Of a DNA stretch of 64,000 nt, positions 10,855 through 36,582 are shown piece by piece. Location of the stretch: the IMG/VR virus record IMGVR_UViG_3300028832_000096. One strand, 5' to 3'. The stretch's first letter is position 1, and every line of letters starts with the position of its first letter. The notes below the pieces were generated by a model. That model did no database searches. It had not been told where the DNA came from and saw only the letters and a program-made list of their open reading frames with translations. This stretch comes from a virus. Taxonomy: Duplodnaviria; Caudoviricetes. The position numbers and the translations under genes were made by a program.

Positions 10855-12453
10855 TCAAACCTCATATTTACATTTATTTGGGAACTTTTCTTCAAGCAAT
10901 TTAAGTAATTCTTCGCGTGTCTTTTTATAATCTTTCACTTTATCTGAGTCATTTAAACAAACTACCTGTAACATATCACTAAATAATGCCCTACGTATAT
11001 CCGTCATACTTTCGTGCATATCTATGTACATGTAACCACAGATGTCATTAACATAATTGTCTGTGTAATATTCATAATAAGGATAAATATATTGGTTCAG
11101 ATTCTTAGGCATTCTAAGCCTAGAAACGCTACGCTCTATCGCAGCTTTGCAAGCTTCACCGACAATTTCCGTTGTTGACTTACGCATAGGCATGATGCCA
11201 TGTTCAGGGCATATTAACTTACCAACAGGATACTTTTCTTTGTGGAAGGTGTTAGCAATTAAATCTAAACCATTTCGACAATGAACTCTATACAGGTTGT
11301 TAGTAGGATAGGACTCATGACGTAAGAAGTCGATATGCGGTTTACCATCAGTAAAAAAATCTCCAACAACTAATGGATTTATTGGAAACATATCATCGTT
11401 GAAGTACAAGAAATATTCTGATAGGTCAGGAATGTTATACAAGAAACATTCGATAGTGCAACTATTGAATGTAGGCAAAAACTGAGCAGGTATGAAGTCC
11501 CTATGGTAAACAATTTTAACATTTTCTTGATTAAGCCATTCAGGCGCTTGACTTTCACGAGCGAGGAGAAGTATTACATTTCGGACAAAAGGCATGTTGT
11601 CTGAAATACTTCTAAGTAAATATTTCAATGAACCCCAATCTCTAAATCTTACATTGCTTACTGTATAGATACCTGTAGTGGTTGTATAGTCCTTCATCCA
11701 CAATTTGTCTCTAGCATTTACATAAGGAATAACAACATCAATATCAGATATATCGCTACCTTCATAATGCTGTCGTTGTGTTGCTTTGATTAAAGCAGAA
11801 GTATATCTCCGCATGTAATTCCAGTTGTAAATTTGTTCTTTTGCCCAACTAGAAGGACATTGTCCAGGACCTACATACTTGAACGAAGTTTCAGTCACAC
11901 AGTCCTTTGGAAAATCAAACGCTTTATCTGGAAATTGCTGAAAACACATTGCAACAAACAAATCGTCTTCAAAGCCTTGACTGATTTCTGGATTCATGTC
12001 AGGCATATCAATTTGACTGTATATCTCCTTTGATACAGCAAGTAGCATCAAAGGGCATGCGGTATGTCGTATAACACCTATACCGCCAGGATGATTATCT
12101 ATTTCTGAAAGGTATATAGACGGGTCATCACACTGAATCATACCGTCATCATCTAGCATTATAAGATAATCATAATTTGATTTAATAAACTGTTTTCTAA
12201 GCTCTCTGCGTGCTCCTAGTATTCCGAGTTTATCATATCTTAGAATTTTCAGTTTGTTTTTAATTTCAGGTGGTTGATAGTCTTGCCAATTCTGAGCAAT
12301 TATTAGAATATCAACTTCCGGCCATAATTCCGAGAGCTTACATAGTAATTCGGAACATCTCCTACTTCTCTCACGACGTGTTTCAATATGATACTCAGTA
12401 TCATTGTTAGGGAAGTAAGATACAATTCCGAATACTTTCTTAAGTGATTGCAT
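10855..12453 (-). CDS. GT-A-like + Stealth (CpsY/SacB-like phosphotransferase) fusion, paralog 1
   Basis: N-terminal DYLIMLDDD; Stealth CR1 DIDVVIPYV, CR2 LKYLLRSI...FLPTFNSCTIE...YFNDDMF, CR4 VCLND. Confidence 0.85.
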   Translation of the reverse strand: MQSLKKVFGIVSYFPNNDTEYHIETRRERSRRCSELLCKLSELWPEVDILIIAQNWQDYQPPEIKNKLKILRYDKLGILGARRELRKQFIKSNYDYLIMLDDDGMIQCDDPSIYLSEIDNHPGGIGVIRHTACPLMLLAVSKEIYSQIDMPDMNPEISQGFEDDLFVAMCFQQFPDKAFDFPKDCVTETSFKYVGPGQCPSSWAKEQIYNWNYMRRYTSALIKATQRQHYEGSDISDIDVVIPYVNARDKLWMKDYTTTTGIYTVSNVRFRDWGSLKYLLRSISDNMPFVRNVILLLARESQAPEWLNQENVKIVYHRDFIPAQFLPTFNSCTIECFLYNIPDLSEYFLYFNDDMFPINPLVVGDFFTDGKPHIDFLRHESYPTNNLYRVHCRNGLDLIANTFHKEKYPVGKLICPEHGIMPMRKSTTEIVGEACKAAIERSVSRLRMPKNLNQYIYPYYEYYTDNYVNDICGYMYIDMHESMTDIRRALFSDMLQVVCLNDSDKVKDYKKTREELLKLLEEKFPNKCKYEV

Positions 12454-18154: not shown

Positions 18155-19744
18155 CTAATTTTCATACTTGCATTTTTCAGGAAATTTAGTTTCAAATATA
18201 GAAACCAATTCTCGCTGAACTGTATCATAATCGGCTACTGTTCCCATATCATTTATACAAACAATGCAAATATGTTTGCTATTTAATATTATATGACGAA
18301 TATTAAATAAGTTGTCATCAATTTCAGTATACACATAAGGGCAAAAATCATCAATGTAGTTACCTGTGAAGAATTGATAGTAATGATAGACATACTGATT
18401 GATGTTTTGCGGTGCTCTAGTTTGTGTTATGCTCTTTTCCAATACATCCTTTAGGGACTTGAATACATTCTTTACGCTAGATTTTAACATAGGCATAGCG
18501 CTGTGTTCAGTAACTATCAATTCGTTTTCATCATAATTAGGTAAATTGAGCATTGTTGTAATTGCGTTTATACTAGACCGACATTCCCAACTAAATGCAT
18601 CTTGTGATTCTAAATTACTATGCTCTTTAAATTGCAATAAGGGCTTTTCATCTACAAAGAAGTCAGACGATACCATATCATCTATCGGAAAAATATCATC
18701 ATTGAAATATATAAATTTCTCTGATAGTCCTTTGATATTAGATAAGAATGCTTCTATTGTGCAGCTATTGTATGTAGGTAGAAATTTTTCTGGTATGAAG
18801 TCTTTGTGGTAAACTATTGTAACATTAGTAATCCATTCAGGTACTTGGGTTTCATCTGAAACGATTAGTACAACATTGCGTACAAAAGGCATATATCTAT
18901 CTATACCTCTTAATAAATACTTCAGCGTGTTCCATGACCTAAATCTGTTAGAATATAATTCTGATTGTTTAGTATTTTTGATATATGCTTCTTGCCATCC
19001 AGATTTAGACGAATCTACATAAGGAATTACAATGTCGATGTCTTTCTCGTTGCTACAAGGAGCTCTTTTGTGTTTAACAGCTTGAATATATGCATTAGAT
19101 ATACAGTTCATATAGTTCCAATCAAGCTGAATATCATCTAACCAAGTAGAAGGACAACTATGATTTGGTTTATAAGAAAGGTCTGAAATACAGCCTTTAG
19201 TGAAGTCAAATGCTTTATTAGGAAATAACGCAAAACAAGATTCGGCAAATACTACATCGCCAAATCCTTCGCATTTTTCTGCATCAATATCTGGATAATC
19301 GATTAGGCTATAAATAGATTTAGAAATAGCTAAAAACGTCATAGGATGTCCTATGCGACGAACTAATCCAACCCCATCAGGGTGGTTATCAATTTCTTTA
19401 ATATAAACCGAGGGGTCTTTGCATGATATAACAGTATCGTCATCTAACATAATTAGATAATCGTATTCTGATTCTAAGAACTCCTGCCTGAGTACTTTTC
19501 TTGCACCTACTATACCAAGCCGTTTTATCTTAGAATTAACTATGCGAAGTTTGTTTTGTATTTTTGGAGGTTTATAATCTTCCCAATTCTGTGCAATTAT
19601 AATGATGTCGATAGTAGGCCATAAACTGCTCAAAGATAAAAGCAATTCGGAACATCTCTTTGTCCTTACACCTCTAACATACTTATGGTAATCAGTATCT
19701 GGGTCTGGAAAATAAGAGATTATTCCGAATACTTTCTTAATCAT
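18155..19744 (-). CDS. GT-A-like + Stealth fusion, paralog 2
   Basis: KKVFGIISYFP, DYLIMLDDD, DIDIVIPYV, FLPTYNSCTIE, YFNDDIF, VCIND; colinear with 10855-12453. Confidence 0.85.
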   Translation of the reverse strand: MIKKVFGIISYFPDPDTDYHKYVRGVRTKRCSELLLSLSSLWPTIDIIIIAQNWEDYKPPKIQNKLRIVNSKIKRLGIVGARKVLRQEFLESEYDYLIMLDDDTVISCKDPSVYIKEIDNHPDGVGLVRRIGHPMTFLAISKSIYSLIDYPDIDAEKCEGFGDVVFAESCFALFPNKAFDFTKGCISDLSYKPNHSCPSTWLDDIQLDWNYMNCISNAYIQAVKHKRAPCSNEKDIDIVIPYVDSSKSGWQEAYIKNTKQSELYSNRFRSWNTLKYLLRGIDRYMPFVRNVVLIVSDETQVPEWITNVTIVYHKDFIPEKFLPTYNSCTIEAFLSNIKGLSEKFIYFNDDIFPIDDMVSSDFFVDEKPLLQFKEHSNLESQDAFSWECRSSINAITTMLNLPNYDENELIVTEHSAMPMLKSSVKNVFKSLKDVLEKSITQTRAPQNINQYVYHYYQFFTGNYIDDFCPYVYTEIDDNLFNIRHIILNSKHICIVCINDMGTVADYDTVQRELVSIFETKFPEKCKYEN

Positions 19745-19960: not shown

Positions 19961-20665
19961 TTAAATATCATTAAAAAGATTAAATCCTGTGTCTTTTGAT
20001 ATGCTTTGAATATAATCATTTACAGCATCTCGCTCTTCCTTAGTGGCATCTCTGCCGTTAGGAATGACTTCGTCAGGATTCTTCAACTCGCCTGCTTGCC
20101 ACTTCCACATAATGCTGCCTTCACGTTTAGACCTATATACATATAAGGGCTTACAAAGTCTACACTGAGTATGCGGAGTTGCTCGTAACTTTTCTTGGAA
20201 TGGAACATCGGTATGATGAACTCTAGTTTCATCAAAGAATGGAACTATTTCTTGACGATAAATCGCTTTCCAAATTGCTCTAGCAGTAGGGTGAATTATT
20301 ACTACATTTTCATCAAAATCAACCCAGTCAAACAAGATTTCATCTGCTAGGTCTTTATCAATAGCGTCAATAAGTTCTTCGATGTAGTTCATCATTATCA
20401 TATCGTCGCTATCGATGAATCCTATATATTTACCTTGGGCTTCTTCTATTCCTACATTCCAAGCTGCACAAGCGCCTTGATGCTTCATAAAGTGAAGTAT
20501 ATGAATATTTGAACAGTCAAAAACATCTAATCTATCTTCGTTACAACCATCATCCACCAAAATAACTTCAACCTCGTCTGTTATTTGAAGTTGAAGTTCT
20601 TTTAACAACTTTACTGTGTATTCATAGGTGTCGTAGTATGGAATTATTAGTGAGAGTTTAATCAT
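19961..20665 (-). CDS. glycosyltransferase family 2
   Basis: LSLIIPYY, EVILVDDG, GACAAWNVG, YIGFIDSDD. Confidence 0.9.
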   Translation of the reverse strand: MIKLSLIIPYYDTYEYTVKLLKELQLQITDEVEVILVDDGCNEDRLDVFDCSNIHILHFMKHQGACAAWNVGIEEAQGKYIGFIDSDDMIMMNYIEELIDAIDKDLADEILFDWVDFDENVVIIHPTARAIWKAIYRQEIVPFFDETRVHHTDVPFQEKLRATPHTQCRLCKPLYVYRSKREGSIMWKWQAGELKNPDEVIPNGRDATKEERDAVNDYIQSISKDTGFNLFNDI

Positions 20666-31961: not shown

Positions 31962-32891
31962 TCATGATACAGGCCTCCTAATGAAATGACCGCATTCTGT
32001 ATCATATGTATAGCCTAGATTGAATTTAATTACAGCGCTAATGATTTCATCTAATGACTGTCTTCCGAGGTTGCGAATATTTGTAAATGGCTTATCATAG
32101 TTGACGATATCATGCAATGTGTTCAACTGGCTTCTCTTCAAGCAGTTATACGTCCTGATAGAGAAATCCATATCCTCAACAATGATGTCTGAAAGAGCTA
32201 CACGTTTTACAGGTTCAGGTGTAGGCTTAAGTAATCTAACAGCTTCAAGTCCCGCAGCATACTGCTTGAGCTGCTCGTTTTCTTCCTTGAGCTGCTCGAT
32301 AGTAGTTTTTGATGCAAACAACTCTTTCAATGCAAAATGAACTTTGCGAAGAGCTTTAAATTCAATCTGTCTTACTCTTTCTCGTGTAAGTCCTAATTTC
32401 TTACCAGCTTCCTCAAGTGTAAGGCTATCTCTATAACGCATTTCGACTACAGCCTGCTCACGGTAATTAAGTCGGTCTCTGAATATTCTATCGAATTCAA
32501 AAGGAGTAACATTGCGATAACTCATATCGAATTCGTCGTCATTGTTAATGTCTTCAAAGTACGACATAATAGCTACACCTGCAAGGCTGTAGTTTACAGT
32601 AGCGATTATGAAATTGTAGGGAAAAATATCTTCGAGTGTCTGAGTGTGGTCAACCATCAATCTTGCAGCGACCACATTAGAGCAAATCTTTTCAAACTTT
32701 GCACTAAAAAGCTTTTCAAGAGCCTTCTGAGCCTTAGGGTCAGGCAAACTAACTAACTGAAGCCATTTCTGAATTGCTGCTTCTGACATTCCAAGAAGTG
32801 CAGCAAAATCTCTATATGTGAGATTATTATTCTTGCAATAAAGCCTGATATTGTTGGCCAGACACTCTTTCTGTTCTTCGGGTTTATACAT
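31962..32891 (-). CDS. XRE-HTH + sigma70 region 4 + RNAP alpha-CTD fusion regulator
   Basis: LTYRDFAALLGMSEAAIQKW (HTH); LNYREQAVVEMRY..TLEEAGKKLGLTRERVRQIEFKALRK (sigma4); DMDFSIRTYNCLKRSQLNTL..IRNLGRQSLDEI (alphaCTD). Confidence 0.88.
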   Translation of the reverse strand: MYKPEEQKECLANNIRLYCKNNNLTYRDFAALLGMSEAAIQKWLQLVSLPDPKAQKALEKLFSAKFEKICSNVVAARLMVDHTQTLEDIFPYNFIIATVNYSLAGVAIMSYFEDINNDDEFDMSYRNVTPFEFDRIFRDRLNYREQAVVEMRYRDSLTLEEAGKKLGLTRERVRQIEFKALRKVHFALKELFASKTTIEQLKEENEQLKQYAAGLEAVRLLKPTPEPVKRVALSDIIVEDMDFSIRTYNCLKRSQLNTLHDIVNYDKPFTNIRNLGRQSLDEIISAVIKFNLGYTYDTECGHFIRRPVS

Positions 32892-33704: not shown

Positions 33705-33791
33705 TGGTGGGAAAGGTAGGAGTCGAACCTACCGAGTCATCTAACAACAGATTTACAGTCTGTCCCGCTACCAGCTACGGACTACTTTCCC
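33705..33791 (-). tRNA. tRNA-Tyr(GUA)
   Basis: GGGAAAG/CUUUCCC, loop CUGUAAA, long variable arm, CCA. Confidence 0.95.
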
Positions 33792-33794
33792 ATA

Positions 33795-34230
33795 AGGTAG
33801 GAGGCCTAACCTCCCTTGTCGGAGTTATCAGTCATTCTCCGAGTTCCCGCTAGCCGGCGACTGAGTACCTCCGGGCACGGTGTTCAGGTAAAAGAAGCAT
33901 CGGGCACATGTCGGCTTGCCAGTTGACATAAGGACTGTTACTACCTTAGTCGATGCTTGAGTCGGGAGCCTACTTTCCCCTGCAAGGCCCAACCTTACTT
34001 GTCTGGCATCTCACCAGAGTTCCCTCTGTCTGATTTGTATACCGCAAGTATGAGGTGGGTGGGCAGTTGCAACTCCCCAGTGCGGTTTTGCTACGATAAG
34101 ACCTGCCAAGTCTCTGTCTCTTGTATTCGTAGCCATACTCTGTATCTTGCTCACCGTTCCAAGATAGTATAAACGCCGATAAATTTCGTGTATCGGTCAC
34201 GGCTCGTTTTGGCAGGAGAGAGCGACCCCT
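33795..34230 (-). ncRNA. large ornate structured RNA (GOLLD/ROOL-class candidate)
   Basis: GC-elevated, no credible ORF, at least 10 helices and 2 pseudoknots visible, flanked by tRNA/tRNA-like units. Confidence 0.55.
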
Positions 34231-34368
34231 TGGTGAAGGGTGATAGGAGTCGCACCTATCAGTTGATAACATTCCTAGCCTAACGCAATCCCCTCAAAAA
34301 TTTCTTCTTGATTCGCTACTGCGTAGTTATCGCTATAGGATAACCCGTCTACTTTGCGGCAACCCTTC
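34231..34368 (-). ncRNA. tRNA-like RNA with greatly enlarged central domain
   Basis: GAAGGGU/ACCCUUC+ACCA acceptor, T-arm AUAGG-UGCGACU-CCUAU, ~85 nt between D and T arms. Confidence 0.65.
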
Positions 34369-34485
34369 ATGTTAATGCAGATTTGTTTGTCGTAAACCTC
34401 TTAGGTCGCGCTCACCCGTATGAATACTGTTAGAAGTTCTGCTTCTCCTAGTGACTGACTCTTATCGCTGGCTGTCACCTACTCC

Positions 34486-34525
34486 CGCCAAGGTTTTTCT
34501 AGAGAGGTACTTGGAACTACACCTC
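34486..34525 (-). ncRNA. mini-pseudoknot repeat
   Basis: GAGGU/ACCUC stem; loop CCAAG pairs with CUUGG after AAAAA. Confidence 0.55.
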
Positions 34526-34527
34526 AT

Positions 34528-34630
34528 TAGTGAAGTAGGTTAGGACTCGAACCTAACATGTCCGTGTCTTTTCGATTTAAGGTTCTTGCACGAACTAACG
34601 CCATAGTGTCTGCCGTTCCACCACTACTTC
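34528..34630 (-). ncRNA. tRNA-like RNA (Leu-type D arm, no canonical anticodon arm)
   Basis: GAAGUAG/CUACUUC acceptor, GGUGGAACGGCAGACAC D arm, GUUAGGUUCGAGUCCUAAC T arm. Confidence 0.7.
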
Positions 34631-34805
34631 ATATTTGAGGGTTCACCTTGTATCACCCACAGGTTCTCTTGTTTAACTACCGTCTTTAACCACCTTATCA
34701 ACAAGCAAGTTACAGTGGTGCAATAGTGACCGCTCACCTAATAGGCTTCTTTGTGTTTTTACTCCTCCATCCCACTATCGACTTCGAAAACCTCTAACGA
34801 GGAAA

Positions 34806-34845
34806 TGAGTTGAGTTTTTGAAGAGGTACTCCTTTGTTAAACTCT
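34806..34845 (-). ncRNA. mini-pseudoknot repeat
   Basis: AGAG/CUCU stem; GAGU pairs with ACUC after AAAAA. Confidence 0.45.
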
Positions 34846-34846
34846 T

Positions 34847-34962
34847 AGGTGAAGTAGGTTAGGACTCGAACCTAACAGGGAAATCTCCCGATTTCCTGCC
34901 TCCTATGTCATCTTAAATAAGATGCAACTCGGACGCTGTGTTTACCTATCCACCACTACTTC
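34847..34962 (-). ncRNA. tRNA-like RNA with extended anticodon arm and long variable arm
   Basis: Acceptor and T arm identical to 34528-34630; CAUCUUA/UAAGAUG hairpin replaces the anticodon loop; GGAAAUC/GAUUUCC variable arm. Confidence 0.7.
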
Positions 34963-35115
34963 ATATCTAATGTGAGTGTAAGAATAACCTAACCACGACT
35001 GGTTCGACTTGATTATTCCCATTTGTCGGTAGCACTCACAACTACCGCTGTCCTATTATCGTTGACAGGTACGCCTAACCATTATTAACGCCTTTGCGCT
35101 ACAGGGTATAGGAAT

Positions 35116-35267
35116 TGGAGACGGGAGACTAGATTTCTACTAGCAATTTCTAGGAGCTACCCCAGCCGTGTTTCACTATACCAGCTACGTATAGTGGCAA
35201 TCGCTGTATTCCATCATCGATAGCGCTACTCGACAACGGGTACAGATTACCTTTACACTACTCCCTC
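35116..35267 (-). ncRNA. tRNA-like RNA with ~70 nt D-loop insertion
   Basis: GGGAG/CUCCC acceptor + UCCA, GUGU...ACAC D stem enclosing two hairpins, T-arm-like CUAG-UAGAAAU-CUAG. Confidence 0.55.
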
Positions 35268-35304
35268 TGGTGATAAGTTTTTAAGAGAGAACCTACCAAA
35301 CTCT
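35268..35304 (-). ncRNA. CCA-tailed mini-pseudoknot
   Basis: AGAG-UUUGGUAGGUU-CUCU-CUUAAA-AACUUAUC-ACCA. Confidence 0.65.
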
Positions 35305-35471
35305 AAGGTATAATGATGTACTATGGCACATCCGAAGATGTAAAATCCACATTCATTTTGTGCGTACATCAGGCACTCACCTGACCAGCGGAGTGATATA
35401 GGTCATTGTTCCGTGACATTAGCCTTTGTCCGAACATCTCCATCTCCTAGTGGCTAACTCAATGGAGTGGT

Positions 35472-35508
35472 TGGCGATAAGTTTTTGAGAAGAACCTACC
35501 AAACTTCT
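35472..35508 (-). ncRNA. CCA-tailed mini-pseudoknot
   Basis: AGAAG-UUUGGUAGGUU-CUUCU-CAAA-AACUUAUC-GCCA. Confidence 0.65.
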
Positions 35509-35564
35509 GAATATAAGGCACATCTAAACGATTTCATAATGTATAAAATTGCTGTAAGTGCCTT

Positions 35565-35594
35565 TGGTGAGAGGTACTTGGGATTACACCTCTC
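35565..35594 (-). ncRNA. CCA-tailed minihelix
   Basis: GAGAGGU-GUAAUCCCAAGU-ACCUCUC-ACCA; related to 34486-34525. Confidence 0.5.
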
Positions 35595-35713
35595 TGGTTT
35601 AGGGCGGGTAACATAGACATAACGCTTGTCATTTCTGATACCCTGTGTCCACCCGTTCATCAAACACGTTACACTGACTTGCACTGTCAGGATTTGCGAG
35701 TGTACAACCCTAA

Positions 35714-35750
35714 TGGTGATAGGTTTTTAACAAGAACCTAACAAACTTGT
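35714..35750 (-). ncRNA. CCA-tailed mini-pseudoknot
   Basis: ACAAG-UUUGUUAGGUU-CUUGU-UAAA-AACCUAUC-ACCA; stem covaries with sister copies. Confidence 0.65.
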
Positions 35751-35786
35751 AGCTTTCATTGCCCAGGATAGCTATAACTTGGGCCT

Positions 35787-35863
35787 TGGTGGACAATCAA
35801 GGACTCGAACCTTGGACCAACCGGTTATGAGCCGGTAGCTCTGACCAACTGAGCTAATTGTCC
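35787..35863 (-). tRNA. tRNA with CAU anticodon (likely Ile2; Met not excluded)
   Basis: GGACAAU/AUUGUCC, CCGG-CUCAUAA-CCGG, CCA; resembles Firmicutes tRNA-Ile(LAU). Confidence 0.9.
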
Positions 35864-36050
35864 ATTGGTGTTGGTGTGACCTATAGATATTCTTTGTGGT
35901 CAACTTTTCTCCAACTGTGGTCGTATGATATCCTACGATTTAGTCAGATTCTCTAACCCCTGGCAGGCGGTTTCCTATAGGTATTTGCATGCTATTGTTT
36001 CTCCGATTATCTCGTTGAGCTCTACAAGATAATAAGATTCCCTACCGCCT

Positions 36051-36175
36051 TGGTAATAGATAGGCTGTTCCTCGAACTCCATTTAACTACTGCCCAGCCG
36101 TTACGCTAAGCTCTTTCGGAATTGGGATTCGTCCAAGTCTCCCCACGCCCTAAGAGGTCCGTAGCACCTATCTAC
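36051..36175 (-). ncRNA. CCA-terminated structured RNA (~125 nt)
   Basis: Terminal helix UAGAUAGG/CCUAUCUA followed by UUACCA; begins 1 nt after the tRNA-Leu CCA. Confidence 0.5.
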
Positions 36176-36176
36176 T

Positions 36177-36264
36177 TGGTGCGAATAGTCGGATTTGAAC
36201 CGACACGGATTATTAGTCCGACGGATTTTAAGTCCGTTGCGTCTGCCAATTTCGCCATACTCGC
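36177..36264 (-). tRNA. tRNA-Leu(UAA)
   Basis: GCGAGUA/UAUUCGC, loop CUUAAAA, long variable arm, CCA. Confidence 0.95.
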
Positions 36265-36282
36265 ATATTATAAATTGTCAAG

Positions 36283-36582
36283 TTACAACATCAAATCTGT
36301 ATACAATTTCTGTAAATCAGATAAGATTTCTTCTAGTTTAACCCTATCAATTTCTTTATCATTTAATGCTTTATCTAAATCGTTGATACATTCTTTATAA
36401 CGATACGCAAATCTATTAATAAGAATTTCTGCTTTTTCTTCATCTTCTTTAACGAGCATATCAAACAAATCAGCTGATTCTCTACCTAACTTATCATTGA
36501 TGATTCGTTCAAACTCTTTCTTGTCATCAGAATCTTTGTTGGTAAAGAACTTATCTCCGTCAGATGTTTCAAGATAAAACAT
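36283..36582 (-). CDS. hypothetical protein
   Basis: AAGGAG RBS, coupled to upstream ORF. Confidence 0.6.
   Translation of the reverse strand: MFYLETSDGDKFFTNKDSDDKKEFERIINDKLGRESADLFDMLVKEDEEKAEILINRFAYRYKECINDLDKALNDKEIDRVKLEEILSDLQKLYTDLML

Follow-up and report, generated by a model that had tools for sequence, protein, structure and literature searches.

The window, i.e. the whole stretch of 64,000 nucleotides analyzed here, is part of a large T4-like phage, in which a Gp23 capsid protein and a prohead protease were found. Between positions ~33700 and 36270, its minus strand carries an array devoid of protein genes, consisting of three tRNA genes, two tRNA-like genes, and numerous further modules packed together, all of which are described below on this strand. 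The first tRNA gene of the array is that of tRNA-Leu(TAA) (36177–36264) and the last that of tRNA-Tyr(GTA) (33705–33791), while a tRNA with a CAT anticodon lies at 35787–35863. After a putative promoter and ahead of the array, a leader motif (36271–36284) which we take to be boxA-like recurs in the leaders of related arrays (L002, L048, L050, L064, L071, L096, and L104), which suggests rRNA-type antitermination of the phage ncRNA operon. The tRNAs were the sole matches in an Rfam search, both at E up to 10 and at the gathering score, and no intrinsic terminator was called on the minus strand of the array by a pattern-based method. Near-identical pieces of the window occur in two bovine-gut metatranscriptomes, as assembled contigs carrying no information on ends, strand, or level, and the shares are small (0.05–0.07).

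In the two tRNA-like genes (34528–34630 and 34847–34962; families D2 and D10), a cargo replaces the anticodon arm: the acceptor stem, D arm, and T arm are common to both, the cargo is unrelated, and many relatives occur across the loci. Apart from the pseudoknot described below, the module at 33990–34090 is shared more widely than any other in the array, with BLAST matches in 18–24 loci and no Rfam match. Two short CCA-ended units (34230–34296 and 35864–35915) have acceptor-like closing stems, and the former includes a T-arm-like hairpin without any anticodon arm. Small putative pseudoknots (36150–36176, 35751–35785, and 34200–34228) begin a few bases from the CCA ends of tRNAs or tRNA-like genes and possibly protect the 5' end of the next module. 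Outside the array, also on the minus strand, a minimal nucleotidyltransferase (PF01909; 39806–40264) is encoded 3.5 kb upstream, which might be connected with counter-defence or the metabolism of RNA 3' ends, and a fusion of an HTH, a sigma-70 region 4, and an RNA polymerase alpha-CTD (31962–32891) just 3' of the array. Two Stealth-family (CR2) genes (10855–12453 and 18155–19744, minus strand) and a family-2 glycosyltransferase (19961–20665) are also present.

Three close copies of an H-type pseudoknot ending in RCCA were found in the array, which confirms the positions given by a previous sequence-only reading of this DNA; their stems covary across the family to which they belong. In each copy, stem 1 (4–5 bp) is followed by UUU, the first strand of stem 2 (8 positions), the stem-1 partner without any linker, a loop of 4–6 nt with A's at its end, the stem-2 partner, and RCCA. 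Copy 1 (35714–35750; 56.6 bits), matched by a near-identical contig from a bovine-gut RNA library, ends in ACCA and has a 5-bp stem 1, the UUU loop, and a stem 2 of seven pairs plus one U-U mismatch; copy 2 (35472–35508; 55.9 bits) ends in GCCA, with stems of 5 and 8 bp; copy 3 (35268–35304; 58.8 bits) ends in ACCA, with stems of 4 and 8 bp. With the covariance model of the family, these copies scored 56–59 bits and the rest of the window no more than 13. A strict, sequence-light descriptor (UUU loop, stems of 4–6 bp and 8 bp, NCCA) matched exactly these three copies in the 64 kb, all less than 500 bp apart, as against 0.08 matches per window, with a maximum of 1, in 100 dinucleotide shuffles.

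The starts of the copies are 204 and 242 nt apart, and unrelated modules lie in between. Copy 1 is preceded by the small putative pseudoknot at 35751–35785, which comes right after the CCA of a tRNA, lacks a CCA of its own, and has BLAST matches in three loci. The unit before copy 2 (35510–35562), found in 15 loci, has a conserved 7-bp stem and a variable AU-rich loop and no CCA, and in its relatives the pseudoknot often comes next. Copy 3 follows a conserved ~165-nt module without CCA (35306–35470; 9–12 loci), after which a tRNA comes instead of the pseudoknot in three relatives.

Three looser relatives had also been assigned to these copies. Their sequences exist, yet none of them matches the covariance model, and the six elements do not form one family. 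The element at 34806–34845 is a conserved CCA-less variant which keeps stem 1, UUU, and the stem-2 junction and forms the 5' end of a longer, likewise conserved module; it has homologues in L044, L049, and L071, with one compensatory change, and is not a member proper. The hairpin at 35565–35594, for which no homologue was found, is a plain one followed by ACCA, without the second stem, and resembles the first stem of the family of the third element. The latter (34486–34525) belongs to a different pseudoknot family, and a conserved RNA of ~160 nt (34365–34525) begins with it. Relatives of this RNA (L001:1101–1265, L002, L003, L045, L048, and L072) always lie directly 3' of a tRNA or tRNA-like end; the 5' pseudoknot covaries, the ~80-nt 3' half is almost invariant, and there is no Rfam match. 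This degree of conservation suggests that the ~160-nt RNA is a candidate for a catalytic or binding role.

An RNA family with a conserved CCA

The three copies belong to an undescribed RNA family, of which 102 distinct copies were gathered by model search and by scanning collections of viral, metagenome, and genome sequences for the pattern. Pattern matches whose stem 1 did not exceed 2 bp, or which lay antisense within ORFs, were dropped as chance matches (L013, L021, L029, and L018), and the membership of L005 and L006 is doubtful. In the core alignment, 97.7% of the cells are paired over both stems, as against 46–60% in slid controls, and double changes are seen at five pairs; the wider set has them at six of the eight stem-2 pairs. 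Because some sequences in these alignments are related to one another and some members had been picked by pattern, most weight was given to the members found otherwise: the copies found by the model alone contribute changes such as U-A to C-G, L132 contributes an A-U to G-C change, and stem 2 is rewritten in L145 and L149.

Nearly invariant are the UUU loop, the A-run, and the CCA, as are three pairs at the helical junction (two U-A and one G-C) and the first pair, which is G-C or G-U; judging from known H-type pseudoknots, this is the set that a triple-helical knot would require. The first pair is G-C in 88 of the 102 copies, with U at −1. The second pair is loose (G-U, U-U, A-U, C-G, or G-C), and the discriminator base may be A, G, or U. 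In some copies, loop 3 accommodates a 45-nt hairpin (L087:11272–11353, L059:2373–2455, L049:3732–3817, L083:2898–2983, L080:1870–1955, and L064:84–169), and in these variants the knot serves as a scaffold for cargo.

RCCA ends 94 of the 102 copies, a figure due partly to the way in which the set was selected, and a purine precedes the CCA in nearly all the array copies. The CCA is under selection when judged by tests which do not require it. The four matches to the first CCA-free pattern were all followed by ACCA. In a CCA-free scan of viral sequences, 10 well-paired sense-strand copies had RCCA and four did not, these four coming from phages of unrelated gene context. Among the divergent copies found by the model alone, which gives the CCA some weight, 29 of 33 end in RCCA. 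Junctions retrieved by protein homology alone carry ACCA or UCCA ends even where stem 2 has been rewritten (L183, L145/L182, and L149), UCCA being found in two lineages (L145 and L149). A few distant copies have no CCA (L017, L025, L031, and L074).

No paper containing the sequence was found in the literature, where an earlier listing as an anonymous candidate is possible, and the isolate phage genomes gave no full-length match; a partial match in a Lak phage is not the motif. The preQ1-I riboswitch, the pistol ribozyme, and HDV-like or theta ribozymes were considered, and Rfam gives them no support.

Placement in arrays and behind tail genes

Most of the family occurs in tRNA/ncRNA arrays of rumen-type phages, on the same strand as the tRNAs and in up to five or six copies per array. 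The modules of these arrays are shuffled, with CCA as the boundary: in nearly every case, a downstream module either follows an NCCA end of some kind or is itself tRNA-like. Several upstream modules without a CCA of their own always have the pseudoknot at their end (10/10, 4/4, 4/4, 3/3, and 3/3). What lies upstream of the pseudoknots is an unrelated module, a tRNA end, a leader, or the end of an ORF, and no equivalents of a T arm, D arm, or anticodon were found there. About 31 of the 102 copies have little or no upstream RNA to protect: 20 begin within 5 nt of a CCA (a few of them by chance), four come after a CCA-less tRNA-like end, and seven right after a leader. Circularly permuted tRNA-like elements were also observed (L001:735–912, plus strand; upstream of L062:4147, minus strand; L084:161, plus strand; L117:1417, minus strand), in which the T arm and the acceptor 3' strand come first, followed by the acceptor 5' strand and the D arm, with pseudoknot-CCA after each; they recall permuted tRNA genes or the Y RNA YrlA.

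The second context is mRNA, where the element lies on the sense strand, ~40 nt or less past the stop codon (L100, L119, L017, L025, L031, and L092). It is best seen in prophages with Peptostreptococcaceae hosts, at the junction which follows their major-tail gene (phrog_88). At the orthologous junctions, apart from a few which are incomplete or unclassified, ~20 distinct relatives carry a hairpin plus U-tract (a pattern-based terminator call) and seven carry pseudoknot-NCCA, at three positions in the protein tree, while both elements together occur in none. L143/L147, which have the pseudoknot, are nested among terminator carriers and have L178 as their sister (support 98/91). The pattern-based calls gave no intrinsic terminator at the pseudoknot junctions, no U-tract follows the element, and Rfam gave no match at the tail junctions. 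This alternation with terminators is that of one prophage family, which is not that of the phage in the window. In host chromosomes, the element was found in three of 112 genomes of one family, twice at prophage tail junctions and once in a phage-like gene context, and when 401 Clostridia genomes were scanned by pattern, the matches were at about background level, so that the element is not a housekeeping RNA in the genomes searched.

Candidate functions

Placed at RNA boundaries, the element builds two stems, together ~12–14 bp, from local sequence only, followed by NCCA, and it replaces intrinsic terminators at a single set of orthologous mRNA junctions. Whereas an ordinary acceptor stem forms by pairing between the 5' and the 3' end of an RNA, the pseudoknot needs no such pairing, so that it could be appended to any RNA: it would provide a helix of about the length of a tRNA acceptor plus T stem without calling on the 5' end. 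These features suggest a minimal acceptor mimic of the TYMV type which acts as a portable tRNA-like 3' end, is matured by host tRNA enzymes, and protects the RNA upstream, a reading to which we give about an even chance. The steps of processing and protection, and the enzymes involved, are what we infer from the comparisons. The two stems would stack coaxially, the UUU loop would form U.A-U triples with the near-invariant U-A pairs of the junction, and the A-run would pack on stem 1, which would make the knot very stable. The host tRNA 3'-maturation machinery might then cut the AU-rich spacer, or cut at the next tRNA, and trim to the CCA. The upstream RNA, be it a phage ncRNA module or an mRNA, would end in the knot plus a 4-nt CCA overhang, which 3' exonucleases would grip poorly and the CCA-adding enzyme could repair, and would be uncoupled from the downstream RNA. 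The broader claim that the element is a signal read by tRNA-processing enzymes is probably correct, and Firmicutes phages may well use this pseudoknot-CCA mimic as a terminator-independent way of making and protecting the 3' ends of both mRNAs and ncRNAs, a statement for which we find the balance even.

Against such a protective end weigh the ~31 copies with hardly any RNA upstream, the few distant copies without CCA, and the fact that the swap with terminators was called by pattern in a single prophage family. The replacement of the pseudoknot by a tRNA after three relatives of the 35306–35470 module also weighs against it and would fit a site for RNase P equally well. The element might be a punctuation mark, or "micro-tRNA" gene: host RNase P would bind the RCCA and cut after UUU, separating the neighbours and freeing a ~30-nt hairpin-CCA. 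In vitro, RNase P cleaves loop 1 of H-type pseudoknots with RCCA, and a U at −1 gives the best cleavage (PMC12710915). The RNase P determinants are found here, namely U at −1, the G-C first pair in 88/102, and, in almost every array copy, a purine preceding the CCA; the element also occupies tRNA-gene slots and ~30% of its copies stand alone. In the same study, cleavage of pseudoknots was slower than that of hairpins by a factor of 7 to 350 (PMC12710915), and the UCCA ends of two lineages do not fit this scheme. At the tail junction, a cut in loop 1 would presumably leave the upstream mRNA unprotected and protect the downstream one, which is the opposite of the effect of the terminator replaced. 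We regard RNase P punctuation, the main rival, as rather unlikely on the whole.

The stand-alone copies also leave room for a proposal of the sequence-only reading, that of an aminoacylatable or CCA decoy. A free ~37-nt acceptor end or aminoacyl carrier would absorb host defences which attack CCA, for example nucleotidyltransferases (AbiEii/MenT) or toxins of the CapRel/FaRel type. The 3'-CCA of the acceptor end is what AbiE-type toxins modify, and a decoy role has been suggested for phage tRNAs (PMC7725324). The element is multi-copy, often stands alone in tRNA arrays, and conserves its CCA. The identity positions of the acceptor vary, however (discriminator A, G, or U; variable second pair), and give no uniform synthetase identity, and most copies end another RNA. 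The single copies at terminator positions of tail operons are left unexplained, and no connection with a defence system was found. This function, possible for the stand-alone copies, is unlikely for the family. The portable 3' end, RNase P processing, and decoy readings are partly compatible and not fully exclusive.

The swap with terminators at the same position might point to a U-tract-independent transcription terminator or pause element in which the CCA is secondary. This is very improbable: the element is not followed by any U-tract, the CCA would be left unexplained, and several copies lie inside or at the very start of tight arrays, where termination would silence the downstream tRNAs.

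The sequence-only reading had further proposed mimics of type III antitoxins, and this claim did not find support. ToxI, AbiQ, CptI, and the phage pseudo-ToxI resemble the element in their length (34–36 nt) and H-type topology, but they lack CCA and consist of repeats in tandem which the toxin cuts and which have single-stranded tails (PMC5086642). Type III toxins cut A-rich sites, and it is in the tails of the tandem antitoxin repeats that the toxin cuts (PMC5086642; PMC12373285); an A-run is present here, but it is internal (loop 3 plus stem 2) instead of lying in a cleavable tail, and the 3' tail is the conserved NCCA. The copies are dispersed and do not form any tandem array of 34–50-nt repeats, they also occur at terminator positions of tail operons, and Rfam gave no ToxI-type antitoxin match even at E up to 10, which makes antitoxin mimicry highly improbable. 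A compact pseudoknot shortly past the stop of the major tail gene, where recoding is known to occur in phages, might also call to mind a stimulator of frameshifting or readthrough extending the upstream protein. The probability of this is close to nil, given that the spacing between stop and knot ranges over 8 nt, only one case out of six has a slippery heptamer, no frame is open in common, and most copies have no nearby ORF.

Comparison with known systems

The portable 3' end which we favor has a parallel at the tail junctions, where intrinsic (Rho-independent) terminators after phage major structural genes occupy the same position in orthologous operons and plausibly have the same outcome, i.e. 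a stable upstream mRNA and less downstream RNA. The element differs from them in that it has no U-tract, carries a pseudoknot and a CCA, and probably acts after transcription. If it does act as a 3' cap, it would be a new way to end bacterial mRNAs and a tiny portable stabilizer for RNA expression.

tRNA-like maturation signals include mascRNA/MALAT1, tRNA punctuation, and RNase P-processed phage RNAs such as C4, all of which are cloverleaf or hairpin mimics. What they have in common with the phage element is that a tRNA mimic sets the ends of a neighbouring RNA; unlike them, the element is a 37-nt pseudoknot without arms. It helps to explain the maturation and the module shuffling of phage ncRNA arrays.

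Pseudoknots with CCA ends are known tRNA mimics of plant viruses (PMC12710915), and the comparison with these structures made in the sequence-only reading holds at the level of the architecture: a pseudoknotted acceptor helix, NCCA, and covariation. The acceptor arm of TYMV and TMV is likewise an H-type pseudoknot in which local sequence forms an acceptor-like helix, with NCCA and a U 5' of the first acceptor base (PMC12710915). The parallel does not extend upstream: the phage element has no T arm, D arm, or anticodon domain, and its terminal stem is 8 bp long. It is, in addition, encoded internally and in several copies by DNA phages of bacteria and shows no consistent aminoacylation identity. 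Since the other arms are lacking, the element is not a member of the plant-virus tRNA-like family. Such pseudoknotted acceptor mimics have been known from plant RNA viruses, and the targeting of pseudoknots by RNase P in vivo was still called open in 2025 (PMC12710915); a natural 37-nt family with ~100 variants, and with terminator and pseudoknot alleles at one junction, provides a direct test bed for this question. If the reading proposed here is correct, the element would represent the counterpart, in bacteria, of the tRNA-like ends of plant viruses, as well as a natural example of pseudoknots handled in vivo by the tRNA-processing machinery.
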